Made by a program: the position numbers and the translations under genes | In this document: positions 6,658 to 61,363 of the stretch, one piece after another | Position numbering within the stretch: the stretch's first letter is position 1 | Layout: every line of letters begins with the position of its first letter | Assembly (NCBI GenBank): GCA_031387085.1 | Contig: JANNCY010000141.1 | Location: 1,265 to 65,264, forward strand | Origin: Flavobacteriales bacterium | Lineage (GTDB): Bacteria; Bacteroidota; Bacteroidia; Flavobacteriales; Flavobacteriaceae | DNA: 64,000 bases | Direction of reading: 5' to 3' | Notes under the pieces: generated by a model | Seen by the model: the letters and a program-made list of their open reading frames with translations, nothing else | What the model was told of the DNA's origin: nothing | The model's database searches: none

Positions 6658-6759
6658 TGCACAGAGCGCACAGAGAATTTGCACCGAGATTACGTCGTAT
6701 GTTATGTCCTCTGATTAAAAAGTTTAATCGTTCTCTGTGCATCCTCCGTGTTCTCTGTG
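6658..6759. repeat. 9-bp-period CACAGAG/CTCTGTG inverted element, copy 1
   Basis: TGCACAGAGCGCACAGAG at 6658-6675 is identical to 61165-61182; inverted CTCTGTG/CTCCGTG units at 6731-6759. Confidence 0.85.
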
Positions 6760-6791
6760 TAAATAAAAATTTAATTGGTTAAATCAATTTT

Positions 6792-8924
6792 ATGAAAAAT
6801 CGAATTATTTTATTGCTGCCCTGTCTTATTTTTGCGACTGGATATACTCAAAATCAAAAAATAAAAATGCAAGAAATTACCATTCCGCCATCGGCAAAGA
6901 AAATTCCACATCCAATAACAAACCACGGAAACACTAGAGTTGACGATTACTATTGGTTAAACGATCGCGAAAATCTAGAAGTGATAGATTATCTAAATAA
7001 AGAAAACGAATACTATCAAAAAGAAACGGCGCATACCGAAACATTTCAAAAGCAATTGTTTGAAGAAATGAAATCCCGAATTAAGGAAGACGACCAATCG
7101 GTTCCTTATTTGTACAATGGCTATTATTACATCACGCGTTTTGAAACGGGAAAAGACTATCCGATCTATTCCAGAAAAAAGGGAACTTTAGATGCTAAAG
7201 AAGAAATTCTATTCGACTGTAACGAAATGGCAAAGGGACATTCGTATTTTCAATTGGGTGGATTAAGCATAAGTGATGACAGTAAATGGGCAGCTTTTAG
7301 TGTCGATTTAGTTTCAAGAAGACAATATACGTTACATTTTAAAAATTTAGAAACTGGAGAAATTTCAACATCAAAAATAGAAAACACTACTGGTGGTGCT
7401 ACTTGGGCAAATGATAATAAAACGATTTTTTACAGTAAAAAAGACGAAGTTACGTTGCGATCAGACAAGATTTACAAACACAAATTGGCTACTGATAGCA
7501 AAGACGATAAATTGGTTTACTTCGAAAAAGATGAAACGTATAACGTTGATGTCAACAAATCAAAGTCTAAAAAGTACATTATTATTGCTTCTGAAAGTAC
7601 ATTGACAAGCGAATACCAAATTCTTTTAGCCGATACTCCAGACCAAAATTTTACTGTTTTTCAAAAAAGAACACGCGGATTGGAATATTCGATTTCTCAT
7701 TTTGAAGATCATTTTTACATTGTTACCAATAAAGACAAGGCGGACAATTTTAAAATAATGAAAACACCAGAAACGAAGACTGCAAAGGAAAATTGGACTG
7801 ATTTGATTCCACATCGCAAAGACGTTTTAATAGAAGATATTGATATTTTTAAAAATTATTTAGTCGTTTCAGAACGTTCGAATGGTTTGAACAAAATTCG
7901 GATTATGCCATGGAAAGGAGACGACTATTACCTTCCATTTGAAATTGAAACCTATACGTGTAACACGACAACCAATGTTGATTTTGACACCGAAATCCTT
8001 CGCTATGCTTATCAATCAATGGCGACGCCGCCTTCTGTAATTGATTTTAACATGCGAACGAAAGAAAAAACTGTCTTAAAAGAAGTGGAAGTTCTTGGCG
8101 GAAAATTTGACAAAAATAATTATAGTGAAGAACGTATTTGGGCCACAGCTACCGATGGAACCAAAATTCCTATTTCGATGGTGCATCGAAAAGGAATAAA
8201 AAAAGACAGTAATAATCCATTTTTATTATATGCTTACGGCTCGTATGGTTATTCTATGGATACATCGTTTAGCTCGACAGTTTTAAGTTTATTAGACAGA
8301 GGATTTATTTTTGGAATTGCCCATATCCGCGGTGGAGAAGATTTAGGACGTCAATGGTACGAAGACGGAAAATTATTAAAAAAGAAAAATACGTTTACCG
8401 ATTTTATCGATTGTTCGAAGTTTGTAATTTCTGAAAAATACACTTCTGCAGCGCATCTTTATGCCGAAGGCGGTTCGGCTGGAGGTTTATTAATGGGAGC
8501 AATTGTAAATATGGCTCCTGAAATTTATAACGGAATCATCGCACAAGTTCCCTTTGTAGATGTGGTAACAACAATGTTAGATGAAACGATTCCGCTAACG
8601 ACAGGAGAGTATGATGAGTGGGGAAATCCAAACGAAAAAAAATACTACGATTATATGTTGTCGTATTCACCCTATGATAATGTGGTCGCTAAAAATTATC
8701 CGAACATGTATGTCTCAACCGGTTTACACGATTCACAAGTACAATATTGGGAACCAGCAAAATGGGTAGCTAAATTAAGAGATTTAAAAACCAATTCAAA
8801 TCAACTTTTTTTAAATACTAATATGGATTCTGGTCATGGTGGTGCTTCGGGAAGGTTTGAAGCGCTTAAGGAATTAGCGAAAGAATTCAGTTTTTTATTA
8901 GATTTAGAAAGAATTGAAAAGTAA
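6792..8924 (+). CDS. ptrB: Oligopeptidase B (S9A prolyl oligopeptidase family)
   Basis: DDYYWL N-terminus, GGSAGG catalytic Ser, DSQV Asp and GHGGASGR His; signal peptide. Confidence 0.92.
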   Translation: MKNRIILLLPCLIFATGYTQNQKIKMQEITIPPSAKKIPHPITNHGNTRVDDYYWLNDRENLEVIDYLNKENEYYQKETAHTETFQKQLFEEMKSRIKEDDQSVPYLYNGYYYITRFETGKDYPIYSRKKGTLDAKEEILFDCNEMAKGHSYFQLGGLSISDDSKWAAFSVDLVSRRQYTLHFKNLETGEISTSKIENTTGGATWANDNKTIFYSKKDEVTLRSDKIYKHKLATDSKDDKLVYFEKDETYNVDVNKSKSKKYIIIASESTLTSEYQILLADTPDQNFTVFQKRTRGLEYSISHFEDHFYIVTNKDKADNFKIMKTPETKTAKENWTDLIPHRKDVLIEDIDIFKNYLVVSERSNGLNKIRIMPWKGDDYYLPFEIETYTCNTTTNVDFDTEILRYAYQSMATPPSVIDFNMRTKEKTVLKEVEVLGGKFDKNNYSEERIWATATDGTKIPISMVHRKGIKKDSNNPFLLYAYGSYGYSMDTSFSSTVLSLLDRGFIFGIAHIRGGEDLGRQWYEDGKLLKKKNTFTDFIDCSKFVISEKYTSAAHLYAEGGSAGGLLMGAIVNMAPEIYNGIIAQVPFVDVVTTMLDETIPLTTGEYDEWGNPNEKKYYDYMLSYSPYDNVVAKNYPNMYVSTGLHDSQVQYWEPAKWVAKLRDLKTNSNQLFLNTNMDSGHGGASGRFEALKELAKEFSFLLDLERIEK

Positions 8925-9003: not shown

Positions 9004-10044
9004 ATGAAAGAAGAAATAAAAGCGTACAATAATGTCTTGGAATTAATAGGAAATACGCCTATTATAAAACTTAACAAAGTTACTGAAGATTTAAAAGGAA
9101 ATTTTTATGCTAAAGTAGAAGCATTTAATCCGGGTCATTCAACAAAAGACAGAATTGCTTTATACATTATCGAAGAAGCAGAAAAACAAGGCATCTTATC
9201 CCCAGGAGACACCATCATCGAAACCACATCTGGAAACACTGGATTTAGTATTGCCATGGTTAGTATTATTAAAGGATACAACTGTATTTTAGCGGTAAGT
9301 TCCAAATCGTCAAAAGATAAAATTGATATGTTGCGTAGTCTTGGTGCAAAAGTTTATGTTTGTCCGGCACACGTAACTGCCGATGATGAGCGTTCGTACT
9401 ATAATGTAGCCAAACGTTTGCATGAAGAAACCAAAGGTTCAGTGTATATCAATCAGTATTTCAATCAATTAAATATTGACGCGCATTATATGACAACTGG
9501 TCCCGAAATTTGGGAGCAAACGCAAGGAAAAATTACACATTTAGTTTGTTGTAGCGGAACAGGTGGAACCATTTCGGGAGCTGCGAAATACTTAAAAGAA
9601 CAAAATCCAAAGATTAGAATTTTAGGAGTTGATGCTTTTGGTTCGGTATTAAAAAAGTACCATGAAACAAAAGAGTTCGATAACAAAGAAATTTATCCTT
9701 ACCGAATTGAAGGTTTAGGAAAGAACTTAATTCCAACTGCAACCGATTTCGATATCATCGACAAATTCATGAAAGTTACCGATGAAGAAAGTGCTCACGC
9801 TACTAGAGAATTGGTACGAAAAGAAGGATTGTTTGTGGGCTATACTTCGGGAGCTGTTTTACAAGCAATAAAACAATATGCAGAAGAGGGAGAGTTTAAT
9901 GAAAACAGTAATGTAATTGCAATTTTCCCAGATCATGGTTCGCGATACATGAGCAAAGTTTTTAGTGATGATTGGATGAACGAACAAGGATTTTTTGATA
10001 GCATTAATGCAGAAGAAGTTCAGAAAATTGAATTTATAAAATAG
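9004..10044 (+). CDS. PLP-dependent cysteine synthase / cystathionine beta-synthase family protein
   Basis: [22 protein letters not shown] and GTGGT motifs. ATG 9004 is preferred over the track's TTG 8986. TAAATTTG promoter at 8940-8947. Confidence 0.88.
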
Positions 10045-12082: not shown

Positions 12083-14104
12083 TTAGTTAATTAAATCATT
12101 AATAATATTTGCAGCTTCAATAATATGGATGTTAGTCTTTATAGCTTTTATTTTTTCGATGTTATTGCTTTTCAAATACTCATCAAATTGTTGGTATTCT
12201 ATATCTATTTTATTGCGTTCGACACTAATAGGAAATTCAATTTCTGATTTCGATTTAATATCCGACCATAGAGTATTTACTTTATTTACTTCGACAAAAA
12301 CATCAGAAAACTGAAGTACGATAGGAGGTAAATCAGTATCATACAACGTATTGATTTTAGTATTTAAATCAATAATCGTTTTTATGGTTTCATTTTCCTT
12401 AAGTCTGTTTTTACTGTTTTCAATTGATTTTGATTTTAATTCATTTGTTAGCACAGTATACCGCAATGTTGATTGTATTTCATCACTTTTTAATGCTGTT
12501 TTATTTGCGCTTTCCCTTGGCATTTGTTTGTCAAACAACAATGGAATTTCAATGTCGGGTGTAATACCAATAGTTTGATTGCTTTTTCCTGTAATTCTGT
12601 AAAATTTTTCGAGTGTAATTTTTATAAATTCACTAGGGTTTTTATCATCCGTCAATGGGAAAATACGTTGCATTGATGCTTTACCATAAGATTGATTTCC
12701 AACCACGATGGCGCGATTATAATCTTGCATGGCATTCGTAAAAAACTCACTTGCTGATGCAGAAAATCCATTAATTAATATGACTATTGGACCTGAATAA
12801 ATAGTACCTCGATTAGGATCTCTTATAGTTTCTTTTTGTTTTTCATGATTATCCATTATGGCTAAAGGTCCGATATCGATAAACAATCCCGCCATATTTA
12901 TGGCTTCATCCATAGAACCACCACCGTTATTTTCTAAATCGATTATTAAACCATCAATTTTATCTCCCTGAAGTTTGATTATTTCTTTTGCTAAATCATC
13001 ACTTACGTTGGTCTTTCCGTTTTCAAACTTCCCGTAAAAACTGGGAATTCGAATGTAACCCGATTTTTTATTGTCTTTCTCAATAATATAACTGTACAGA
13101 TTATTTTCGTAATCTTTCATTATTTTCTTAATCAAACTAACAGAATAGATTTCACCACTTTTTTTTCGCAATGTAAAATCAGCTTTTTTATAATCACTGG
13201 AGCTGATGATTTCCTCAATTTTTTTCATCGAAGAACAGGCAATTTCATATTCGTCATCATTAATGCTGATTTTTACAATCTGATCACCGATATCAATTTT
13301 TTTAGAAAAATAGGCCGAACTACCCGGAATTATTTCATCTACTGCGATTTCATCTTTTTCCGTAAGGGAAACATACATTCCAAAAGTTAAATTATCGGCG
13401 CTTACACCAGCTAAAAAAGCAGCTTTTTCATTTTCAGAAAAGTAATCGGTGTGTGGATCAAAATAAGAACAAAAGGAAGAAAATAATTTGGCTTCAAATT
13501 CCTTTCTTGTGAATTGTAATTCAGAAGATTTGCAACTGTACTTATCCAGAATTTTAATCTTGGATAGCTTCGCTAATTTTTCGAAATTAGTCACTATGGA
13601 ATCTTTATTTTTACTTATTTCCGCCACATCCTTTAAAACATCAAACAAAGCTCTTTTTTTATAAAGGTGTTTTAATTCCGTTTCATTTTTTAAAAAAGGA
13701 AATGATTTCTTCGAGAATATTACTTTTTCATCACTACTAAATAGGAACGGCTCTGCTTTTATACTTTCGATGATAGTAGCATAACGGTTAATTGCTTTGT
13801 TATAGGCCAGATAAAAATCATTTACAAAGCTACAATCTTTTTCAAGAAGGGAATTATCAATAGTATATTGATGCTTTTTTAATTCGTTGATTTCGGGTTC
13901 TAGAAACAATCGATTTTCTTCGTCGAGAACTTCTAAAAAAGTTTTAAAAACATAAACGGAGAGGCTGTCATCAACTGCTTTTGGTCGGTAATGTTGTTCC
14001 TGAAGTAAATTATTGATTCTTGTCAAGGTTTCACAAGTCGCTTTATCACTCTGAGCGAAAGTAAATAAAGGAAGGAAAGCAATTAATAAGAATTGTTTTT
14101 TCAA
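12083..14104 (-). CDS. Carboxy-terminal processing peptidase (S41A/Prc-like, PDZ)
   Basis: DPHTDYF, GYIRIPSFY, IIDLENNGGGS, SASASE and SYGKASMQ motifs. Confidence 0.9.
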   Translation of the reverse strand: MKKQFLLIAFLPLFTFAQSDKATCETLTRINNLLQEQHYRPKAVDDSLSVYVFKTFLEVLDEENRLFLEPEINELKKHQYTIDNSLLEKDCSFVNDFYLAYNKAINRYATIIESIKAEPFLFSSDEKVIFSKKSFPFLKNETELKHLYKKRALFDVLKDVAEISKNKDSIVTNFEKLAKLSKIKILDKYSCKSSELQFTRKEFEAKLFSSFCSYFDPHTDYFSENEKAAFLAGVSADNLTFGMYVSLTEKDEIAVDEIIPGSSAYFSKKIDIGDQIVKISINDDEYEIACSSMKKIEEIISSSDYKKADFTLRKKSGEIYSVSLIKKIMKDYENNLYSYIIEKDNKKSGYIRIPSFYGKFENGKTNVSDDLAKEIIKLQGDKIDGLIIDLENNGGGSMDEAINMAGLFIDIGPLAIMDNHEKQKETIRDPNRGTIYSGPIVILINGFSASASEFFTNAMQDYNRAIVVGNQSYGKASMQRIFPLTDDKNPSEFIKITLEKFYRITGKSNQTIGITPDIEIPLLFDKQMPRESANKTALKSDEIQSTLRYTVLTNELKSKSIENSKNRLKENETIKTIIDLNTKINTLYDTDLPPIVLQFSDVFVEVNKVNTLWSDIKSKSEIEFPISVERNKIDIEYQQFDEYLKSNNIEKIKAIKTNIHIIEAANIINDLIN

Positions 14105-14109
14105 GACGA

Positions 14110-15192
14110 TTATTTTTTATAAAACGGCAGTTTCACCACTTTAGCAGCTACTTTATTATTTCGTATTTGGATAAAAATGTCACTGTCAACAGCTGCGAAA
14201 TCGGTTTTTACATAACCCATTCCAATTCCTTTTCCAAGAGATGGCGCCATAGTTCCCGAAGTTACTATTCCAATGTTATTCCCATCAGCATCAACAATTT
14301 CATAATCGTGACGCGGAATTCCTCTTTCGGTTAATTCAAATCCGATTAATTTTTTGGTAACACCGGCTTCTTTTTGTTTTTTCAAATTCTCCCAATTGGT
14401 AAATTCTTTGGTGAATTTTGTTATCCAACCCAATCCAGCTTCAAGTGGCGAAGTGGTATCGTTAATATCATTTCCGTACAGGCAGAATCCCATTTCCAAA
14501 CGCAAGGTATCACGAGCTGCTAATCCGACAGGTTTTATTCCGAATGATTTTCCTGCTTCAAAAACTTTATTCCACACTTGTTCTACATCTGAATTCTTGC
14601 AATAAATTTCAAATCCACCTGAACCAGTATAACCCGTTGCAGAAATAATTACGTGTTCAATTCCGGCAAAATCGGCAACTTCAAAATGGTAATATTTAAT
14701 AGCAGACAAATCGATTGACGTTAACGATTGCATAGCTTCAACGGCTTTTGGACCTTGAATAGCAAGCAATGAATAGTCTTCTGAAATATTTCGCATTTCG
14801 GCACCAACAGTATTGTGTGATGAAATCCAATTCCAATCTTTATCAATATTGGAAGCATTTACTACCAATAAATATTGCTCTTCTTTAATTTTGTAAACGA
14901 TTAAATCATCTACAATTCCGCCTTCATTATTAGGAAGACACGAATATTGTGCTTTACCAATTTCCAATGTTGACGCATCGTTGGATGTCACTTTTTGAAT
15001 CAAATCCAATGCTGTTGCGCCAGATATTAAAAACTCGCCCATATGCGAAACATCAAAAACGCCAACGCTATTTCGAACCGTTTCATGTTCGGCATTTACG
15101 CCTTCGTATTGAACCGGCATATTGTAACCTGCAAACGGAACCATTTTTGCTCCCAAACTTTCGTGAATGTGAGTTAAAGCTGTATTTTTCAT
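14110..15192 (-). CDS. gcvT: Glycine cleavage system aminomethyltransferase T
   Basis: [28 protein letters not shown] and [13 protein letters not shown] motifs. Confidence 0.97.
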
Positions 15193-15379: not shown

Positions 15380-16543
15380 TTGAAATGGATTAATGTTATT
15401 AAAATGAATTCGGAAACACCTACAATACCTTCAGAAAAACCAACAAAAATTATTGAACCCCAACTCAATATTATTTTAACTACCGATGAAGATGATGAGC
15501 GACCCGTTTATATTTCGGGGAATTTTAATACTTGGATAACACAAGATAAGAAGTTTGAAATGGAAAAAGTAGGTCAAGGACTTTATCATTTTAAGTTTGA
15601 TGCTGATTTTGTATATCCCGACGAGATGCAGTATAAGTTTACCAGAGGCGATTGGAGTGAAGTTGAAATTGACAAATATGGCAATCGTACTGAAAATCGA
15701 ATTTGTAAGCAAAAAAATGGTGTAAAAAAAGAACATGTGGCAAAATGGCGTCACAATTGGCTTCCGTTTAAATCTAATTTTTTACCAAAAGTGCATTTGA
15801 TTTCGGAAGAATTTGAGATTCCACAGTTGAATAAAACACGAAGAGTTTGGGCATTATTGCCGCATGATTACGATTCTTCGTCTGAAAGTTATCCGGTTTT
15901 ATATCTTCAAGATGCACAGAATTTATTCAATGAAAAAGCCAAATTCGGCAATTGGGAAATTGATAAAAAGCTGGCTGTAATGGCAGAATACAACATCGGT
16001 AAAATTATTATTATTGCTGTTGAACATGCCGAAAAAGAACGCATTAAAGAATACAATGTGGGAAATACAGTTTTAGGAAGTGGGCAAGGAAAAAAATACA
16101 TTCGTTTTTTGACCGATACGTTAAAACCATTTATAGATGAAAATTTCAGGACCAAAACCGAACGAGAACACACCGGAATAGGAGGGAGTTCGATGGGTGG
16201 ATTGGTGAGTATTTTCTCTGGAATCATGTATCCAGAAGTATTTGGAAAATTGATGATCTTTTCGCCATCATTATGGGTGGTTCCAAAAATTAAATTGTCG
16301 ATTCTCGATATTGATGAAACGCAAGATACTCGAGTGTATTTATATGCTGGCGGAGATGAAAGCGCCACCATGGTTGAGCATGTTCAAACCTTTAAAAAGC
16401 GTTTGCATAAAAAAGATGTTTTCACCGATAAAATGAAAATTAGGTTGAGTATTAATATGGAAGGAAAACACAATGAAGTGTATTGGAGTGATGAATTTCC
16501 GAAAGCAATTGAATGGTTGTTTTTTAGCAATAAAGAAGAGTAA
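15380..16543 (+). CDS. Alpha/beta-hydrolase esterase with an N-terminal starch-binding (CBM20/CBM48-like) domain
   Basis: N-terminal VYISGNFNTW...YKFTRGDW; YPVLYLQDAQN and GGSSMGG esterase motifs. True start may be ATG 15404. Confidence 0.75.
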   Translation: MKWINVIKMNSETPTIPSEKPTKIIEPQLNIILTTDEDDERPVYISGNFNTWITQDKKFEMEKVGQGLYHFKFDADFVYPDEMQYKFTRGDWSEVEIDKYGNRTENRICKQKNGVKKEHVAKWRHNWLPFKSNFLPKVHLISEEFEIPQLNKTRRVWALLPHDYDSSSESYPVLYLQDAQNLFNEKAKFGNWEIDKKLAVMAEYNIGKIIIIAVEHAEKERIKEYNVGNTVLGSGQGKKYIRFLTDTLKPFIDENFRTKTEREHTGIGGSSMGGLVSIFSGIMYPEVFGKLMIFSPSLWVVPKIKLSILDIDETQDTRVYLYAGGDESATMVEHVQTFKKRLHKKDVFTDKMKIRLSINMEGKHNEVYWSDEFPKAIEWLFFSNKEE

Positions 16544-16559
16544 TATAAATTTTAAGTAA

Positions 16560-17972
16560 ATGAAAATTAATTATATAGAGACATTTATATCTAAAGATAG
16601 TTTAGTTATTATTCCGATAGAAGAAACAGAAAAGGAAGTTCAGTTTCAAGACATTGTAGTAACGTCAAAATTGTTTTCAGGTAAAAAAGATTCGCATTAC
16701 ATCATTGAAAAAAAAGGAACGCACTTTCTGTTTTTAGGTTTGGGAAAATCACCCGATTATAAAACGATTAAAACGTCTTTTAGAAGAACAGCATCTAAGC
16801 AAGGTCCTTATTTTGAAACCGCAGCAACAATTGTGTTTTCTAAAGATTTTACAAAAGATTTTGTGGAAGCTGCCATTTCCGGATTGGTTTTAGGAACCTA
16901 TAAATTAGGTCATTACAAAAAAGAAAAAGAGGTTCATTCTTTATCCAATGCCGATTTTAGTTTGACAATTGTCAGTAATTCCGATTTAAAAAGCGCCGTT
17001 GAAAAGGGAATCAAAATCGCTTCTGCGCAATTACAAACCTATAAATTGGTCGATTTACCTTCGAATAAAGTTACGCCAAGCTACCTGTCCAATTGGGCAA
17101 TAACGATGGGAAACAAATATGATTTTTCTGTTGAAGTCTTTGATAGAGCGAAATCTAATGCTTTTGGGTTGGATGCTTTTCTGGCAGTTGGTCAAGGAAG
17201 TGTGCAAGAACCGCAATTCATTATCATGGATTACCATCCAGCCAATGCGAATAAACACGTTGGTTTAGTTGGAAAAGGAATCACTTTTGACACCGGCGGA
17301 TTGAACATCAAAGTAGCCGGAATGGTACACATGAAATGCGATATGGCTGGAGGTGCTGCCGTATTGGGTGCGATGCAATTGATAGCCGATTTGAAATTAC
17401 CACACCGCGTGACTGCGATTGTACCAGCTTGTGAGAATTCGGTTGATGCCAAGTCTTTTGTGCCAAGCGATGTGATTCAGAGTTACCACGGAAGTTCTAT
17501 CGAAATTATTGATACCGATGCCGAAGGACGATTAATTCTTGCCGATGGTTTGTCGTATTTAATCAAAAATTACAATCCAGAAACGGTTATCGATATTGCC
17601 ACTTTAACAGGAAGTAGTGTCGCTACTTTGGGTTATGAATGTGGTGCTTTGTTTACCAATAATGACAATTTATCCAAAAAATTACAACAGTCTGGTGATG
17701 CTATTGGGGAACGTTTATGGCAATTGCCTTTGTGGGATGCTTATAAATCGGATATTGATAGTGAAATTGCAGATGTTAAAAACTATTCAGGAAAGCCAGT
17801 AGCCGGAGCGATTTCTGCTGCTAAATTCTTAGAACATTTTACCGACAATCATTCGGCTTGGGCACATCTTGATGTTGCTGGAGTTTCTTTTGTAGATGAT
17901 GAATTTGCAAAAACCAAACATGCTTCGGCATTCGGAGTGCATTTAATTACTAAATTTATTGAAAATCTATAG
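16560..17972 (+). CDS. M17 leucyl aminopeptidase family protein
   Basis: VGKGITFDTGG, MKCDMAGGA, TDAEGRLILAD and WAHLDVAG motifs. Confidence 0.93.
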   Translation: MKINYIETFISKDSLVIIPIEETEKEVQFQDIVVTSKLFSGKKDSHYIIEKKGTHFLFLGLGKSPDYKTIKTSFRRTASKQGPYFETAATIVFSKDFTKDFVEAAISGLVLGTYKLGHYKKEKEVHSLSNADFSLTIVSNSDLKSAVEKGIKIASAQLQTYKLVDLPSNKVTPSYLSNWAITMGNKYDFSVEVFDRAKSNAFGLDAFLAVGQGSVQEPQFIIMDYHPANANKHVGLVGKGITFDTGGLNIKVAGMVHMKCDMAGGAAVLGAMQLIADLKLPHRVTAIVPACENSVDAKSFVPSDVIQSYHGSSIEIIDTDAEGRLILADGLSYLIKNYNPETVIDIATLTGSSVATLGYECGALFTNNDNLSKKLQQSGDAIGERLWQLPLWDAYKSDIDSEIADVKNYSGKPVAGAISAAKFLEHFTDNHSAWAHLDVAGVSFVDDEFAKTKHASAFGVHLITKFIENL

Positions 17973-17975
17973 CGT

Positions 17976-19193
17976 ATGGAAAGTCAAATCAAAAACTACA
18001 TCTGTGTTTCCAATTATTTTAAAGGAAATGATTTTTTAATTAATCTCAAAAAATTAGGCAATCGCGTGTATTTAATTACGTCGGAAAAACTGCGCGATAA
18101 ACCATGGGCTTTTGATTATATTGATGAGATATTTTTTATGCCCGGTCAAGATGTCGATTGGAATTTAGACGATTTACTTAACGGTGTGGCTGGATTAATG
18201 CGTCATAAAAAGATTGATGGTATCATAGCGTTGGATGATTTTGATGTGGAAAAAGCAACTTACCTTCGAGAAAATCTTCGTATGCCAGGAATGGGACAAA
18301 CCACAGGTCGTTACTTTAGAGATAAATTGGCGATGCGTATGAAAGCAAAAGAGGAAGGTGTTCCAATTCCGGCTTTTAGTTCTTTGTTTAATGATGAAGA
18401 GATCAATCATTTTGCTGATAATGTTACTGCACCTTGGGTTTTGAAACCGCGTTCTGAAGCTTCAGCATCTGGAATTATGAAAGTGCATTCTAAAGAAGAT
18501 CTTTGGCAAAAAATCCATGAATTGGGAGATAATCGTATTAAATATTTAGTAGAACAATTCAAACCCGGAGCGGTGTATCATTGCGATGGCATCAATTGGA
18601 AAGGAAAAGTGTTGTTTAGTTTAACATCACAATATCTAGCAACTCCGATGGAAATTTCACAAGGTGGAGGTATTTTTAGAAGTGCCAACATTCCGTATGA
18701 TTCCGCTGATGATAAAGCGATTAAAAAAGTCAACGAGCAAGTAATGAAAGCATTCGGAATGCAACATGGAGCGACGCATACCGAATTTATCAAATGCAAT
18801 GAAGACGGGAAAATTTACTTCTTAGAAACCGCATCAAGAGTAGGAGGTGCACATCTTGCCGAAATGGTGGAAGCCGCATCGAATATCAATTTATGGGGAG
18901 AATGGGCAAAAGTAGAAGATGCTTTAGCAAGAGGAATCGAATACAAATTACCCAAAACTAAAAAAGGTTTTGCCGGAATAGTCTTGACTTTATCCAAATT
19001 TGAAAATCCGGATTTAACTGGTTTTAATGATTCAGAAGTTTGTTTTAGTGTTCCTTTGGCTTATCATGCTGGATTGATTGTAAAATGTGATGATAATTCA
19101 CGAGTTCGCGAATTATTAGATGATTATGCAGATCGTTTGGTTCGTGATTTTGCGACTTCTGCACAGCAAGTTGAAGTTAAAAAGTTGCATTGA
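17976..19193 (+). CDS. ATP-grasp ligase of unknown substrate
   Basis: FRDKLAMR, PWVLKPRSEASASG, LVEQF and THTEF...FLETASRVGG motifs. Confidence 0.85.
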   Translation: MESQIKNYICVSNYFKGNDFLINLKKLGNRVYLITSEKLRDKPWAFDYIDEIFFMPGQDVDWNLDDLLNGVAGLMRHKKIDGIIALDDFDVEKATYLRENLRMPGMGQTTGRYFRDKLAMRMKAKEEGVPIPAFSSLFNDEEINHFADNVTAPWVLKPRSEASASGIMKVHSKEDLWQKIHELGDNRIKYLVEQFKPGAVYHCDGINWKGKVLFSLTSQYLATPMEISQGGGIFRSANIPYDSADDKAIKKVNEQVMKAFGMQHGATHTEFIKCNEDGKIYFLETASRVGGAHLAEMVEAASNINLWGEWAKVEDALARGIEYKLPKTKKGFAGIVLTLSKFENPDLTGFNDSEVCFSVPLAYHAGLIVKCDDNSRVRELLDDYADRLVRDFATSAQQVEVKKLH

Positions 19194-19575
19194 TTGTGAT
19201 TTTGGAAGCTTGCTAAAATCTGGTCCGTCTTTAATAAAATTTTATATTAACTGTAAAGCTATATATGGAAATATTAATGATTCTGATATCAGTGATGATG
19301 TTTATTGTAAAGTTGTAAATTTTGAAATTGCATTACGAATGCATGCAAATAATGACAGTCTACTTAATAATCAAGAGGATTTAATTGATGTAATTAATAA
19401 ATTATGCTCCTTTAAAAATCTTCCACAAACTGAAACTGATAAATTACAGAAAGGAAGAGTTTTTTTAAACATGATAAAGCATAACAAAAAACAATTTCCA
19501 TCTTGGGCTGAAGGAATAAAATCTTTTGAAGAAGCATATGAAATCTTAATGAAAAACAAATTTAATATACTATAA
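19194..19575 (+). pseudogene. 5'-truncated hypothetical ORF, first cassette-like unit
   Basis: About 127 protein-like codons with no convincing start of their own; the track ORF start at 19120 lies inside the ATP-grasp gene in another frame. Followed by an attC-like repeat. Confidence 0.5.
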
Positions 19576-19591
19576 CATTTAGAATAACTGA

Positions 19592-19725
19592 TGGTAACAG
19601 CGGTTACATTCAATTGCTACGACTTATAGTAATGGAAAAATAAATTTTCCATTACTTCGTATTTTCCTGCGGAAAATACTCGCGTCTAAAAGCCGCAATG
19701 GAAATGTAGCCGCAAAACGTTGTGC
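19592..19725 (+). mobile_element. attC-like palindromic cassette-junction element 1
   Basis: TGGTAAC-A-GCGGTTACATTCAATTGC ... GCAATGGAAATGTAGCCGC-AAAAC-GTTGTGC. Internal hairpins AGTAATGGAAAA/TTTTCCATTACT and GTATTTTCC/GGAAAATAC. Confidence 0.65.
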
Positions 19726-19797
19726 GTCATTTTCCATGACTGAAAACTGAAAAGCAATAAACAAATAGAAATCTAAATAAACTTAATTTAAATCATT

Positions 19798-21096
19798 ATG
19801 AGCACAATTAAAATTAATAGCCGAAAAAACATTTTTATTCTATTATTTTTTTTCTTTTTTCTGGGTGCAAATGCACAGACCGTAAGCACATTGGCAGGAA
19901 GCGGTACAAATGGTTTTGCTAACGGCACGGGAACTACAGCACAATTTAGTTATCCTTATGGGGTGGCTTTAGATGCTGCTGGAAATATTTACGTAGCGGA
20001 TAGAAGTAATAATCGCATCCGGAAAATTACGACTAATGGGGTGGTAACCACCTTAGCTGGGTCTGGCATAGCAGGTTTTGCTAATGGCACGGGGACCGCT
20101 GCACAATTTAACTTACCAATTGGCGTGGCGACTGATGCTTTGGGGAATGTTTATGTAACGGATATGGCAAATAATCGTATCCGAAAAATTACTGCTACTG
20201 GGGTGGTAACCACCTTGGCTGGTTCTAGTATAGCGGGTTCTGCTGATGGAACGGGGGCGTCGGCACAATTTGCCAATCCTGGGGGCATAGCTGTAGATGT
20301 TGCTGGGACTGTTTATGTAGCGGATTCTTCTACTAATCGCATCCGGAAAATTACGGCTGCAGGGGTGGTAAGCACCTTGGCAGGAAGTACCCCAGGTTAT
20401 GCCGACGGCACAGGGACCTCAGCACAATTTTTGTATCCTTGTGGCGTGGCTTTAGATGCTGTCGGGAATATATTTATAGAAGATTCCGGTAATAATCGCA
20501 TCCGCAAAATCACAGCTGCAGGGGTGGTAAGTACCTTGGCGGGAAGTACTTCTGGTTATTCAGATGGTACGGGAACGGCTGCACAGTTTTACGTGCCTTG
20601 TGGTGTGGCTGCAGATGCTGCTGGGAATGTTTATGTAGCGGAAAATGGTAATAATCGTGTCCGAAAAATTACGGCAGCAGGGGTTGTAACCACTCTTGCA
20701 GGAAGTGGTGCTCAAGGGTTCACTGACGGCGAAGGAACTGCAGCACAATTTTACTGGCCTTATGGCGTGACTATTGATGCTGTCGGGAATATATTTATAG
20801 GAGATTCAGGTAATCATCGCATCCGTAAAATTTCGGGTGTTTTAGGAACTGCCAGTTATTCTCATAATCAAATATCAGTTTATCCAATCCCCACCACATC
20901 TATAATTAATATTGATTTAGAAGATATTACAGTTACCAAAACTATAATATTTGACCTGAATGGAAGGGTCGTACAATCTGAAAATATTGTTGATAATAGA
21001 AGCAATCTTAATATTAACCACCTTGCCAATGGGATTTATTTGATGCAAATAATTACGGATAAAGGAATGATTACTAAAAAGATAGTTAAGAATTAG
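19798..21096 (+). CDS. Secreted NHL-repeat six-bladed beta-propeller with a T9SS type A C-terminal sorting domain
   Basis: Signal peptide; six ~53-aa repeats (V.TLAGS...GTG..AQF..P.G.A.D..GN.Y.AD..N.RIRKI); C-terminal ISVYPIPT...IFDLNGRVV...GIYLMQI...KKIVKN. Confidence 0.9.
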   Translation: MSTIKINSRKNIFILLFFFFFLGANAQTVSTLAGSGTNGFANGTGTTAQFSYPYGVALDAAGNIYVADRSNNRIRKITTNGVVTTLAGSGIAGFANGTGTAAQFNLPIGVATDALGNVYVTDMANNRIRKITATGVVTTLAGSSIAGSADGTGASAQFANPGGIAVDVAGTVYVADSSTNRIRKITAAGVVSTLAGSTPGYADGTGTSAQFLYPCGVALDAVGNIFIEDSGNNRIRKITAAGVVSTLAGSTSGYSDGTGTAAQFYVPCGVAADAAGNVYVAENGNNRVRKITAAGVVTTLAGSGAQGFTDGEGTAAQFYWPYGVTIDAVGNIFIGDSGNHRIRKISGVLGTASYSHNQISVYPIPTTSIINIDLEDITVTKTIIFDLNGRVVQSENIVDNRSNLNINHLANGIYLMQIITDKGMITKKIVKN

Positions 21097-21111
21097 AAGA
21101 TGACAAACAAC

Positions 21112-21242
21112 GCCCAACTTCTACTTCCTGCATTAGGGTTTTGGGCAAACACCGATATTTGTCTTATGTTTATTTATTTGAGTGATTAATTGAGATTTAG
21201 TGTATACTTTTCCCCATATGAGGAAGCAGTAATCCGTTGCTA
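21112..21242 (+). mobile_element. attC-like palindromic cassette-junction element 2
   Basis: GCCCAAC (fits RYYYAAC)-TTCTACTTCCT ... AGGAAGCAGTAA-TCC-GTTGCTA; 131 bp; begins 16 nt after the NHL stop. Confidence 0.55.
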
Positions 21243-21274
21243 GAAACCCTCCGAAAAACAAAAAATAAAAACGA

Positions 21275-21797
21275 ATGGAGCATATAATCACAAAAAGAAT
21301 GACCTTAGACGACTTGGAAAAGTTGCAAAAAATAGGGCGAAAAACTTTTGAAGAAACGTTTTCAGAATCAAACTCTGAAGAAAACATGATAAACTACCTT
21401 GAAGAAGGATTTCCAAAGAAAAAATAACCGCAGAATTGAATGATAAAAACTCAGAGTTTTACTTTGCTGCATTGGAAAAAGAAATAATAGGATATTTGAA
21501 AGTCAATTTTGCAGAATCACAAACCGAACTGAAAAACAGTAAAGCTCTAGAAATCGAGAGAATCTATGTTTTAAAAGACTTTCATGGAAAAAGCGTCGGA
21601 CAATTACTGTACGATATAGTAATCGAGGTTGCTAAACAAAAAGATTCCGAATATGTTTGGTAGGTGTTTGGGAAGAAAATCCAAGAGCGATAAGTTTTTA
21701 CAAGAAAAATGGCTTTGTAGAATTTGATAAGCATATTTTAAAATTGAGCGACGATGAACAAACATACATAATGATGAAATTGAAACTGGAAGACTAA
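21275..21797 (+). pseudogene. GNAT N-acetyltransferase (PaiA/spermidine acetyltransferase-like), broken by two single-base deletions
   Basis: MEHIITKRMTLDDLEKLQKIGRKTFEETF...EEGF, shift at about 21410-21413, then ...LEIERIYVLKDFHGKSVGQLL...YVW, shift at 21660/21661, then GVWEENPRAISFYKKNGFVEFDKH...KLED*. 523 nt equals 525 minus 2. Confidence 0.88.
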
Positions 21798-21806
21798 AAA
21801 GGTAGC

Positions 21807-21848
21807 CACTAATAGCGGTTATAATCTATTGCTAGTGTTGTGTTAGTG
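21807..21848 (+). mobile_element. Short or internally deleted attC-like element 3
   Basis: CACTAAT-AGCGGTTATAATCTATTGCTA...GTTAGTG. The left arm is homologous to element 1 (AACAGCGGTTACATTCAATTGCTA); the ends are 6/7 complementary. Confidence 0.5.
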
Positions 21849-21864
21849 ATTTTGTTTTGAAGTT

Positions 21865-23055
21865 TTATTTCTCAAACATTCCAACGGTCCCGCCAACCCA
21901 ATCCTTGTCTTTGTTGAATTTTACGCCAATCATTTCACCACGACTCAAACGCACTAAATTAGTCACTAGAGTAGGAGATGGTGCGTCCTTTTTCCAAACG
22001 GCTAATAAGCGCACTTCTGCTTTAACTTTTCCGTCGGGTGATTGAATTACCGGTTTGTAATTGACTTTTTTCTGAAGTATATACAAGTCTTTTTCGGTAA
22101 CTGCTTCAATATCTTCTCGTTTCACATGAAAAATAACGCCTGTTCCCGAAAAAGAAAACAACGGTTTTAAAACATAATTTTCCAAATCGGATGGAATTTC
22201 TTTTAAATCGCTCAAAAGGGTCGTTTCGATAAAGTATTTTCCTTTTATGTACGGTAAAATAAATTTACTAATTCTGAAAAACCAATTCGGATGACCTGCC
22301 CATTCTACATCCAAATCATCGGAAAAATCGAAGTTTAAATTTAAGTCGGTTCGTAAATCCAATTCGTCAAAAATCACACGGTTGTAAATGCGTTTGATTT
22401 GGATTTCATATCCGTCAGCATTTGTATAAAATAATTGTTTTCCACTTTTGATTACCTGAGTAACACAAACAACTGGAATTCCAAAATCGCGTTCACAGTA
22501 GTTAAAATCAATTTGCGTATTTTGCTTTTCTGGTTCTATTTCCATTAGAATAACATTTTCTTTTGGAAGGTGATTGCAAATAGCATCTTCAACAATTTGC
22601 AAATAATCATCTTTAGAAATTCCATTAAAAAATGGCGTCAAATCCGATAGAAAAGGATAATGCTTCACAAATTTCTCAGCCAAATTGTATTGAAAATTAT
22701 ACAAAGAAGGAAAGCCCTGCACTTCAATTAGTTTTGGAATAATATCTCCGTTTTCTTCACAAATTCCGAAATCAATAGCTAAAAAAGTAGTGTGATTGTC
22801 TTCATTGGGTACTTTTCGGTTGAGTTCTAACGCTTTGTTGGTTAACGATAAAAAATCGTCTCTTTTAATAAAATTAATAACTTCATTACTCGCTTCAATT
22901 AATTGGGTTTTTAAGGAATCTGGAATAAAAAACGGTGTTTCTCCAATCCTAAAAGTTACTTTATAATCAAAGTCGGAAGTAATATCATCGATAAATGCTT
23001 CGTATTTATCAGTTGAAAAATTATCGTTGAAAAGTGCTCTGTATTTTTGATTCAT
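21865..23055 (-). CDS. Putative ATP-grasp-like amide ligase (glutathionylspermidine-synthase / circularly permuted ATP-grasp-like)
   Basis: DFGI...KLIEVQGFPSL, WAGHPNWFFRISK, YVLKPLFSFSGTGV and YILQKKVNY resemble ATP-grasp elements; assignment is tentative. Confidence 0.6.
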   Translation of the reverse strand: MNQKYRALFNDNFSTDKYEAFIDDITSDFDYKVTFRIGETPFFIPDSLKTQLIEASNEVINFIKRDDFLSLTNKALELNRKVPNEDNHTTFLAIDFGICEENGDIIPKLIEVQGFPSLYNFQYNLAEKFVKHYPFLSDLTPFFNGISKDDYLQIVEDAICNHLPKENVILMEIEPEKQNTQIDFNYCERDFGIPVVCVTQVIKSGKQLFYTNADGYEIQIKRIYNRVIFDELDLRTDLNLNFDFSDDLDVEWAGHPNWFFRISKFILPYIKGKYFIETTLLSDLKEIPSDLENYVLKPLFSFSGTGVIFHVKREDIEAVTEKDLYILQKKVNYKPVIQSPDGKVKAEVRLLAVWKKDAPSPTLVTNLVRLSRGEMIGVKFNKDKDWVGGTVGMFEK

Positions 23056-46598: not shown

Positions 46599-46672
<74 letters not shown>

Positions 46673-46705
46673 ATTTTTGTTTTAAAACTTAATGGAAAGT
46701 TTATT

Positions 46706-46719
46706 GGGGTGGCAGGATT
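46706..46719 (-). repeat. 14-bp duplicate of the tRNA-Pro 3' end
   Basis: GGGGTGGCAGGATT is identical at 46706-46719 and 46836-46849. Confidence 0.8.
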
Positions 46720-46833
46720 ATTTCATGATCCTGTTAAGGTTTGTTGTAAATTAAAGCAAAGCTTCAATTTAAATAAACCTTTACGTTTTTTTATGAAAAT
46801 GAATTTTCTAAAAAACCTCCACGCTTTATTTTG

Positions 46834-46908
46834 TCGGGGTGGCAGGATTCGAACCTGCGGCCTCCTGCTCCCAAAGCAGGCGCGATAACCGGGCTACGCT
46901 ACACCCCG
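46834..46908 (-). tRNA. tRNA-Pro(TGG)
   Basis: CGGGGTGTAGCGTAGCCCGGTTATCGCGCCTGCTTTGGGAGCAGGAGGCCGCAGGTTCGAATCCTGCCACCCCGA. Confidence 0.97.
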
Positions 46909-46921
46909 AAGACAAAAAAAG

Positions 46922-47008
46922 CGGAGAGTAAGGGATTCGAACCCTTGGTACAGTTTCCCATACGCATGTTTAGCAAACATGTCCTTTCGGCCACTCAGGC
47001 AACTCTCC
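46922..47008 (-). tRNA. tRNA-Ser(GCT)
   Basis: GGAGAGTTGCCTGAGTGGCCGAAAGGACATGTTTGCTAAACATG... with a long variable arm and GTTCGAATC; promoter TACATTTG at 47059-47052. Confidence 0.97.
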
Positions 47009-61152: not shown

Positions 61153-61164
61153 TGCAAAAACTAA

Positions 61165-61276
61165 TGCACAGAGCGCACAGAGGAATTGCCCAGAGATCCA
61201 CAGACGATTTACTATCTCATAATCCGGTGATTACAATCTACGAAATAATCTCCGTGCCTTCTCTGTGAACTCTGTG
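61165..61276. repeat. 9-bp-period CACAGAG/CTCTGTG inverted element, copy 2
   Basis: Same 18-mer as 6658-6675; further CAGAG/CACAGAC units; inverted CTCCGTG, CTCTGTG and CTCTGTG at 61250-61276. Confidence 0.85.
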
Positions 61277-61291
61277 CAAAAAAATAATAAT

Positions 61292-61348
61292 CTTTGCGAA
61301 CTTTGCGCTGTCATCCTGAGCTTGTCGAAGGACTTTGCGCTCTTTGCG
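61292..61348 (+). repeat. CTTTGCG 9-bp-period array interrupted by a REP-like GTCATCCTGAGCTTGTCGAAGGA
   Basis: CTTTGCG at 61292, 61301, 61333 and 61342; insert at 61310-61332. Confidence 0.75.
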
Positions 61349-61363
61349 GTTAAATAAAAAACC

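Follow-up and report, generated by a model that had tools for sequence, protein, structure and literature searches.

The segment 19194-21864 of the 64,000-nucleotide (nt) stretch analysed here (hereafter the window; contig JANNCY010000141.1 of an uncultured Flavobacterium, found in sequencing runs that are freshwater sediment metagenomes) is very probably a decayed, recombinase-less array of three gene cassettes belonging to an integron-like system of Bacteroidota, in which cassettes would travel as circles and a tyrosine recombinase would act at G|TT. A cassette-array reading was advanced in an earlier note made from the sequence of the window alone, and it is supported by further copies of the elements, by variation of the locus among strains and by the same complementarity rule in independent arrays. 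Three putative recombination sites (elements 1 to 3) lie within 2.3 kb without an integrase, which, as far as architecture alone is compared, fits an attC-site cluster that is devoid of integron-integrases (CALIN). The cassettes, with their open reading frames (ORFs), and the sites are arranged as follows.

19194-19575, plus strand: remnant of cassette 1, a 5'-truncated ORF (19198-19575) encoding the C-terminal 125 amino acids of its family
19591-19726, plus strand: element 1, an intact attC-like site, supported by its fold, the alignment of its relatives, covariation and copies elsewhere; R'' ATGGTAAC (19591-19598), spacer A (19599), left arm (19600-19617), inner hairpins (19628-19656 and 19659-19679), right arm (19695-19713), spacer AAAAC (19714-19718) and R' GTTGTGCG (19719-19726)
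19720-21237, plus strand: cassette 2, an NHL gene (ORF 19798-21096, intact) with its own site
21111-21243, plus strand: element 2, an eroded attC-like site that passed the strict plan scan only at the threshold score; R'' CGCCCAAC (21111-21118), spacer TT, imperfect stem near 21121-21129 and 21221-21229, spacer TAATCC (21230-21235) and R' GTTGCTAG (21236-21243)
21275-21797, plus strand: cargo of cassette 3, a GNAT acetyltransferase pseudogene that has lost one nucleotide near 21421-21427 and another near 21660
21806-21843, plus strand: element 3, a truncated site; head CCACTAAT (21806-21813), in which AAC has become AAT, a spacer A, the left arm (21815-21832) and GTTGTGT (21837-21843), the interior and the right arm being gone

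As the earlier note had noticed, the three reading frames are co-oriented and unrelated to each other, and each is closely followed by an element (16, 15 and 9 nt from stop codon to element). The first ORF aligns without gaps to residues 72-196 of a family of hypothetical proteins of 196-200 amino acids that is confined to Bacteroidota; the 71 N-terminal residues are lost, and the break lies 4 nt past the stop codon of the upstream ATP-grasp gene. The product of the second ORF contains NHL repeats, a C-terminal Por_Secre_tail domain (sorting by the type IX secretion system, T9SS) and a signal peptide-like N-terminus, and its gene is the only one of the window cassettes that looks functional from its sequence. 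The GNAT pseudogene spans three frames and, when read through, is 76-86% identical to a Flavobacterium family of 174-amino-acid GNAT proteins. No TAnnTTTG motif (the Bacteroidota -7 box) is found on the plus strand upstream of the NHL or GNAT ORFs, in agreement with the earlier observation.

The sites follow the plan xxxxxAAC-N1-2-stem...stem-N5-6-GTTxxxxx, with the window core boxes GGTAAC/GTTGTG and CCCAAC/GTTGCT. Element 1 combines an outer stem of 18/19 nt with two inner hairpins and folds as DNA with z = -6.1 on the plus strand and -5.9 on the minus strand, values that no shuffled sequence equals. Element 2 does not fold better than its shuffles and retains an imperfect stem of about 10 bp at the expected offsets; a minus-strand reading of this element, which scored higher in the scan, was rejected because the direction of the ORFs and the cassette rule described below fit the plus strand only. 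Element 3 is represented by its head and left arm, which are 84% identical to those of element 1. The arm motif common to these two elements, already recognised in the earlier note, occurs exactly twice in the 64 kb (zero occurrences expected), and a head-only site resembling element 3 is found at position 7491 of the metagenome contig L087.

Beyond the window, homologs of the cassette 1 ORF are followed by sites of the same plan in L086 (a Bacteroidota genome), in L087 and in L089 (Flavobacterium chuncheonense). In the latter, the site head equals that of window element 1, CTGGTAAC-A-GCGGTT, with the head GGTAACAGCGGTT located downstream of a full cassette 1 homolog. In an alignment of element 1 and 12 relatives, TAACA is invariant on the left and CGTT is present on the right in 12 of the 13 sites. 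The attC core boxes RYYYAAC...GTTRRRY are matched, with AAC in all 13 sites and GTT in 12, AAC being preceded by T and GTT followed by A or G. The asymmetric arm spacing that the earlier note had singled out in element 1 proves to be real and a trait of the family: 12 of the 13 sites have one spacer of 1 nt and one of 5 nt, and element 2 has 2 nt and 6 nt. Site lengths range from 88 to 182 nt, stems comprise 18-23 nt, and the interiors are conserved and branched. Single-nucleotide bulges are present (element 1 has arms of 18 and 19 nt, and the L089 site has a bulged G), their position not being constant. When the site ends alone are aligned, compensatory changes are found in all 12 stem pairs, and 87.8% of the cells are paired compared to 60.7% in shuffles (reached by none of 500) and 25-34% with a slid partner, a percentage that is partly circular because the scan that selected the sites demanded a stem.

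Of the scans for such sites, a stricter one based on the site plan proved usable. Gapless and loose stem scans were set aside, given their background of 572 and then 35 hits per 1.5 Mb or their failure to detect bulged stems; a covariance model built from mini-elements recovers only the right halves of sites with long interiors, and regular-expression counts of heads and tails were uninformative. An intergenic inverted repeat on the minus strand of the window (61159-61351; CAAAGAGCGCAAAG... and ...CTCTGTGCGCTCTGTG) surfaced in one of the stem scans, and similar GCAAAG-type repeats are present in the gaps of loci L051 and L054 (the gaps are defined below); this is probably a separate repeat family of Flavobacterium.

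Inside some of the sites of L086 (about 6740-6775) and L087 (about 6735-6770 and about 7760-7795), a promoter-like motif TTTG-N19-20-TATCTTTG is present (TATCTTTA in one of the three sites). It fits the Bacteroidota -33/-7 promoter consensus and is oriented toward the next cassette; window element 1 contains no good match to this consensus. If these promoters are functional, each such site would drive the next cassette, unlike the promoterless cassettes of classical integrons.

The location of the sites directly behind stop codons, and the first inner hairpin of element 1, which together with its T-run scores as an intrinsic terminator, would also suit gene-specific terminators or 3'-untranslated RNA structures that are inherited with the genes and have no role in recombination. 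However, such structures would need neither TAACA and CGTT kept invariant at set distances beyond the stem nor, as detailed below, 5-nt boxes complementary to the cassette start, ORF-less units and an adjoining recombinase. Intrinsic-terminator matches are limited to that one hairpin of element 1, with none in elements 2 and 3, and the regional count is that expected from shuffling. Searched at both gathering and E-value thresholds, Rfam yields no match in the insert and elsewhere in the window only Flavo-1 RNAs and tRNAs. We regard the terminator explanation as highly unlikely.

A further regularity links each site to the beginning of its own cassette. A unit starts with GTT and 5 nt whose reverse complement precedes AAC in the unit's own downstream site, from which the start is separated by hundreds to thousands of bases. 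Across 19 adjacent pairs, 72 of 95 positions match, compared to 40.9 +/- 4.4 in permuted pairs (the observed total is reached in 0 of 100,000 permutations), and 14 of the 19 pairs match at 4 of 5 positions or better. The window NHL cassette obeys this rule, as the earlier note had proposed, with its start GTTGTGCG (19719-19726) matching the reverse complement of its own R'' CGCCCAAC (21111-21118) at 7 of 8 positions. A GNAT cassette in locus L096 starts with GTTAGTGG, and the head of element 3, CCACTAAT, is likewise complementary to this start at 7 of 8 positions. Further pairs from independent arrays (start, then own head) are as follows.

L086: GTTAGGTG and CACCTAAC
L087: GTTAGCAG and CTGCTAAC
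L093: GTTAGTAG and CTACTAAC, spanning 6.2 kb and five ORFs
L094: GTTACCTG and CAGGTAAC
L095: GTTAGGGG and CCCCTAAC
L089 (F. chuncheonense, full cassette 1 gene): GTTACCAG and CTGGTAAC

Such complementarity is to be expected if units exist as circles whose ends pair at the base of the folded site, and the rule, as a sequence signature, indicates circular excision with crossover at G|TT. A mechanism confined to duplex DNA would have no need of pairing between head and start.

Gene and site appear to travel together, judging from the cassette 1 homolog of F. chuncheonense and from the GNAT cassette of L096. The latter locus (JGI Ga0606457_003) carries at least 12 co-oriented small ORFs between sites resembling element 1 over 12.5 kb, one of them being the closest intact homolog of the GNAT pseudogene (86%). 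The array extends past both ends of this 12.5-kb stretch of a 238-kb contig, and the platform is not within the stretch. The GNAT homolog of F. capsici is found in an ordinary operon context, and therefore this family is not always cassette-borne. Homologs of the cassette 1 ORF are also found in islands adjoined by tRNA genes, in L089 (about 9700-9790) and in L092 (about 14615-14722), and the L092 island additionally encodes a SAM_5-type integrase; the cassette 1 gene family therefore also moves in tRNA-associated islands.

Copies of the elements are also present in metagenomes, in other contexts. A 224-nt contig of run X2 contains a complete copy of element 1 (92% identity), with the similarity starting exactly at TAAC (19595) and stopping exactly at GTT (19721). 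Contigs of high depth (22-39x, compared to about 3x for the flanks) carry the interior of element 1 with other arms that are complementary to one another, for example, left ...TTTGCAAAATCGC and right GCGATTTGAGCAAAGCCGC-ATTCC-GTTAGCAA, and some contigs match element 1 by the left arm alone. Relatives of the element 2 core (21132-21216) possess perfect 12-bp arms, CTGCTTCCTGCA and TGCAGGAAGCAG, within other flanks and terminate in ...TGAGAC-GTTAGCGG. The elements are not single-copy; the earlier note would have counted single-copy elements toward a refutation.

These observations bear on the possibility that the palindromes resemble repetitive extragenic palindromes (REP or REPIN) or miniature inverted-repeat transposable elements (MITEs) and colonise intergenic DNA autonomously, with ORFs that are ordinary strain-specific genes and an array that is coincidental. 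Elements 1 and 2 are indeed imperfectly palindromic and, at about 130 nt, as long as enterobacterial repetitive intergenic consensus (ERIC) sequences or MITEs, and occur in several metagenome contexts, with excess depth in run X7. However, there are just two copies of the arm in the 64 kb, both within the insert, and only chance matches to element 1 were obtained by BLAST, nhmmer and regular expressions in 80 Flavobacterium loci (about 1.5 Mb) that encode relatives of the flanking ATP-grasp ligase, one genome per species. An exact-pattern scan of JGI metagenomes for the shared arm returned 4 hits, all of them chance matches in coding DNA or unrelated sequence. No target-site duplication is seen at the points of divergence between the window and the X2 copy of element 1. 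Moreover, the sites always lie in the ORF direction, right behind the stop codon, a given gene is accompanied by the same site in different species, and a transposition model has no place for complementarity between head and start. Independent spread of this kind thus has very little probability.

The array occupies a junction that varies across Flavobacterium. Its surroundings comprise the following features.

17976-19193, plus strand: conserved ATP-grasp ligase gene (Pfam ATP-grasp_4), the stop codon of which adjoins the insert
21865-23055, minus strand: conserved convergent gene for a 396-amino-acid protein without a Pfam hit, the first gene of a GATase/GCS2 cluster
19196-19204, plus strand: left copy of the 9-nt direct repeat GTGATTTTG, read from the sequence, which brackets the insert
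21847-21855, plus strand: right copy of GTGATTTTG, 10 nt short of the convergent gene's stop

In about 50 of the 80 loci, the ATP-grasp gene adjoins the gene for the 396-amino-acid protein, and the two converge. Their stop codons are separated by 2671 bp in the window, with the three co-oriented frames inside, whereas the three nearest relatives (L002-L004; 88-91% amino acid identity) have gaps of 1, 19 and 3 bp. In metagenome runs X5-X7, contigs of co-occurring relatives show an empty site, joining 19153 to 21863 and 19170 to 21861. Hence, in line with a difference between related strains that the earlier note had anticipated, window 19194-21864 is an insert that is absent from the nearest relatives. 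The gap is likewise just 1-30 bp in some Flavobacterium species; in about 32 species it measures about 550-740 bp and holds a conserved 180-amino-acid ORF, and in further species it reaches 3 kb and contains unrelated genes without cassette sites. The cargo of other gaps includes T9SS proteins of about 910 amino acids, an M1 peptidase, or a GNAT protein with a 476-amino-acid ORF. This junction is a variable spot across Flavobacterium, and the three genes of the window are present in none of the gaps of the 80-locus set.

Cassette sites are found in just 2 of the approximately 50 gaps, those of the window and of L046 (Flavobacterium sp. SUN052). In L046, the gap contains an attI-like site, ...TATTATAA|GTTAGCTG, and two cassettes that are oriented opposite to those of the window and match the rule at 7 of 8 positions each, with the last site abutting the ATP-grasp stop codon. 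An origin of the junction from a dif site or an integrative mobile element exploiting Xer (IMEX) was considered and ruled out because empty sites have only 1-19 bp between the stops. The GTGATTTTG repeat, for which the probability of bracketing the insert by chance is about 0.03 (a rough estimate rather than a computation), may mark a microhomology-mediated deletion or an illegitimate join. Elsewhere in the window, two copies of the Flavo-1 RNA motif (RF01705; 5514-5593 and 60145-60234, both on the minus strand; 71 and 62 bits) place the stretch in Flavobacteria, and three tRNA genes are clustered at 46599-47008 on the minus strand. The ATP-grasp protein has a single identical counterpart on record, encoded on a contig of 3.8 kb.

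Candidate enzymes come from related arrays that do include a recombinase. The L086 array opens with a tyrosine recombinase of 388 amino acids (its Xer-type family has a typical length of about 385), and close homologs head loci L093 and L094 (both in one genome) and L095; a tblastn search added two Chryseobacterium plasmids, L100 and L101. Five of the six loci (L086, L093, L094, L095 and L100) share the same order: the recombinase gene, transcribed toward the cassettes, an attI-like site, and co-oriented cassettes ending in sites. The exception is the plasmid of C. oryzae (L101), in which the array is broken up by IS91. In the attI-like site, a hairpin precedes (G)TATAAGCTA or ATATAAACAA, which in turn precedes GTTxxxxx, with the crossover drawn as TATAAGCTA|GTT, and the cassettes of the five platforms obey the rule, the first cassette of L100 excepted. 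Two different genomes have a conserved leader, about 200 nt long, upstream of their recombinase genes (L086 3213-3430 and L093 9796-10000); it includes GC-rich repeats and the inverted repeat TTGCTACAAATAATAGCAA; the core genes that precede it differ.

The clearest platform is that of L100 (NZ_CP041688.1, a plasmid of Chryseobacterium sp. SNU WT5), with at least six cassettes, five of which match the rule at 8/8, 8/8, 8/8, 8/8 and 7/8 positions. The cargo comprises Crp/Fnr regulators, RidA, a metallophosphoesterase, a GLPGLI protein, an SRPBCC protein and a repeated ORF-less unit. The latter, of about 200 nt (GTTGGGAA...TTCCCAAC...), is present in two full copies, and its start recurs at two more sites. 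Two site heads are directly followed by insertions (13203-14800 and 15664-17666), namely an IS110-family element and a group II intron with its ltrA on the opposite strand.

The recombinase is most closely related to XerA, XerD and XerC. It aligns continuously, end to end, with archaeal XerA and has 15 residues where VchIntIA has 57, and therefore lacks the IntI-specific domain; its TIGR02249 score of 197.5 compares to a cut-off of 265, placing it under the integron-integrase cut-offs of NCBIfam. The family is represented in Bacteroidota by at least 8000 clusters at E < 1e-30. The suggestion of the earlier note that a recombinase other than IntI might mobilise the cassettes fits these findings, given that an Xer-type enzyme without the IntI insertion opens the related platforms.

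The enzyme and the site geometry together bear on the possibility that the window array is a remnant of a classical integron (a CALIN), with ordinary attC sites and a true IntI encoded elsewhere in the genome. The inverse AAC/GTT core boxes with a pyrimidine before AAC and a purine after GTT, the co-oriented ORFs, the cassette rule and the element lengths of 126-133 nt are all compatible with such an origin, and integrons are on record in Bacteroidota in the broad sense (PMC8618304, PMC9024848). However, both arms of canonical attC sites include 5-6 nt of unpaired spacer (PMC5027507), as opposed to 1 nt and 5 nt in nearly the entire aligned family; site lengths reach 182 nt; the recombinase of every platform found is devoid of the IntI-specific insertion; and IntegronFinder 2.0 identified a single complete integron in Bacteroidetes proper, in Salinibacter (PMC9024848). 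Accordingly, we consider a classical remnant improbable, if somewhat less so than either terminators or autonomous palindromes.

Under the preferred reading, that of a decayed array of the integron-like Bacteroidota system, a cassette would have the form TTxxxxx - ORF(s) - xxxxxAAC - N1 - stem ... stem - N5 - G, and a tyrosine recombinase would excise cassettes as circles and insert them by cutting at G|TT. The site probably works as a folded strand or cruciform, given that complementarity between head and start matters only if the ends pair in a circular cassette, and the catalyst is likely to be the Xer-type enzyme. The window array would have arrived by such recombination and then decayed: cassette 1 would have lost its 5' part and anything upstream, such as a platform and an attI-like site; the stem of element 2 would have deteriorated, and some bases of its spacers would probably have disappeared; and the GNAT frame would have been lost by frameshift, with the last site reduced to its head and left arm. 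Further mobility would require a recombinase supplied from elsewhere in the genome.

Several observations weigh against this scenario. No Xer/IntI-family recombinase was detected by tblastn in the 64-kb window or in the 1.5 Mb of loci from the 80 relatives, and none is tied to the Flavobacterium-type sites of the window, L089, L046 and L096. The left end of the insert is a truncation rather than a site junction. Loss of a single cassette, reordering and circles at the window locus were not seen in the assembled contigs, which mask rare variants. The rule fails for the pair formed by elements 2 and 3 (2 of 5 positions) and for 4 of the 6 pairs in L096, and the fold of element 2 is no better than that of shuffled sequences (z = +1.2 and +0.4). 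The sites used for covariation were mostly chosen by a scan that requires a stem, and the spacer geometry is unlike that of every attC site shown to work.

Integrons are the textbook gene-capture system and are considered very rare in Bacteroidetes. The arrays described here share with integrons and CALIN the co-oriented ORFs, mostly without promoters of their own, that are each followed by an imperfect palindrome extending from ...AAC to GTT...; the complementarity of the start to the unit's own site head, which implies a circular intermediate and G|TT crossover; the variability of site sequence with the structure kept; the existence of integrase-less arrays; an attI-like site next to the recombinase; and ORF-less cassettes. 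The IS110-family element and the group II intron inserted in the L100 sites are another likeness, as IS1111-attC elements and group IIC-attC introns insert likewise in integron sites. The differences are the spacers of 1 nt and 5 nt with a conserved A after AAC and C before GTT, the stems of 18-23 nt enclosing branched, conserved interiors in sites of up to 182 nt, the recombinase that lacks the IntI insertion and is transcribed toward the cassettes, and the Bacteroidota promoter consensus in some site interiors. The system thus follows the logic of integrons, yet is set outside the integron family because of its distinct spacer geometry, its site length and branched interior, and its co-oriented recombinase without the IntI insertion.

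Two Xer-dependent systems are also comparable. Xer enzymes are able to act on single-stranded DNA when it folds into a hairpin resembling a duplex site, as in the CTX-phage type of integration at dif, and the candidate enzyme is nearest to XerA, XerD and XerC; however, the arrays have no dif-like 28-bp site and contain serial cassette sites rather than a phage attachment site. The pdif modules of Acinetobacter plasmids are rows of gene modules bounded by Xer-type sites, without a dedicated integron integrase, and resemble the present arrays in this organisation. Whereas the pdif type is a short duplex site for XerC/XerD that alternates in orientation along the row, the sites described here are structured elements of 90-180 nt in one orientation that obey the head-to-start complementarity rule. 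No description of a cassette system of Flavobacteriia or of Xer type was found in the literature, in which large surveys of metagenome-assembled genomes may have counted some of the sites as attC.

A more general proposal, for and against which we see the case as evenly balanced, is that Flavobacteriia and other Bacteroidota possess a widespread platform of their own, in which an Xer-type tyrosine recombinase without the IntI domain captures and excises cassettes via folded, asymmetric sites with 1-nt and 5-nt spacers, some of which would carry promoters for the next cassette. Such a platform would mean either that the integron principle was invented here independently or that a relative of the progenitor of IntI-based integrons has survived. 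If so, Flavobacteriia, along with fish-associated Chryseobacterium plasmids, would harbour a large, unrecognised pool of mobile genes, and the system would bear on the evolution of IntI from Xer-like recombinases, help to separate the essential features of attC from lineage-specific ones and provide a second structure-specific recombination system for engineering of Bacteroidota. The presence of a complete platform on the plasmid of a cultured Chryseobacterium isolate makes the system directly testable. For the Flavobacterium studied here, the finding accounts for the strain-specific insert of the window and for the origin of its NHL/T9SS surface protein.

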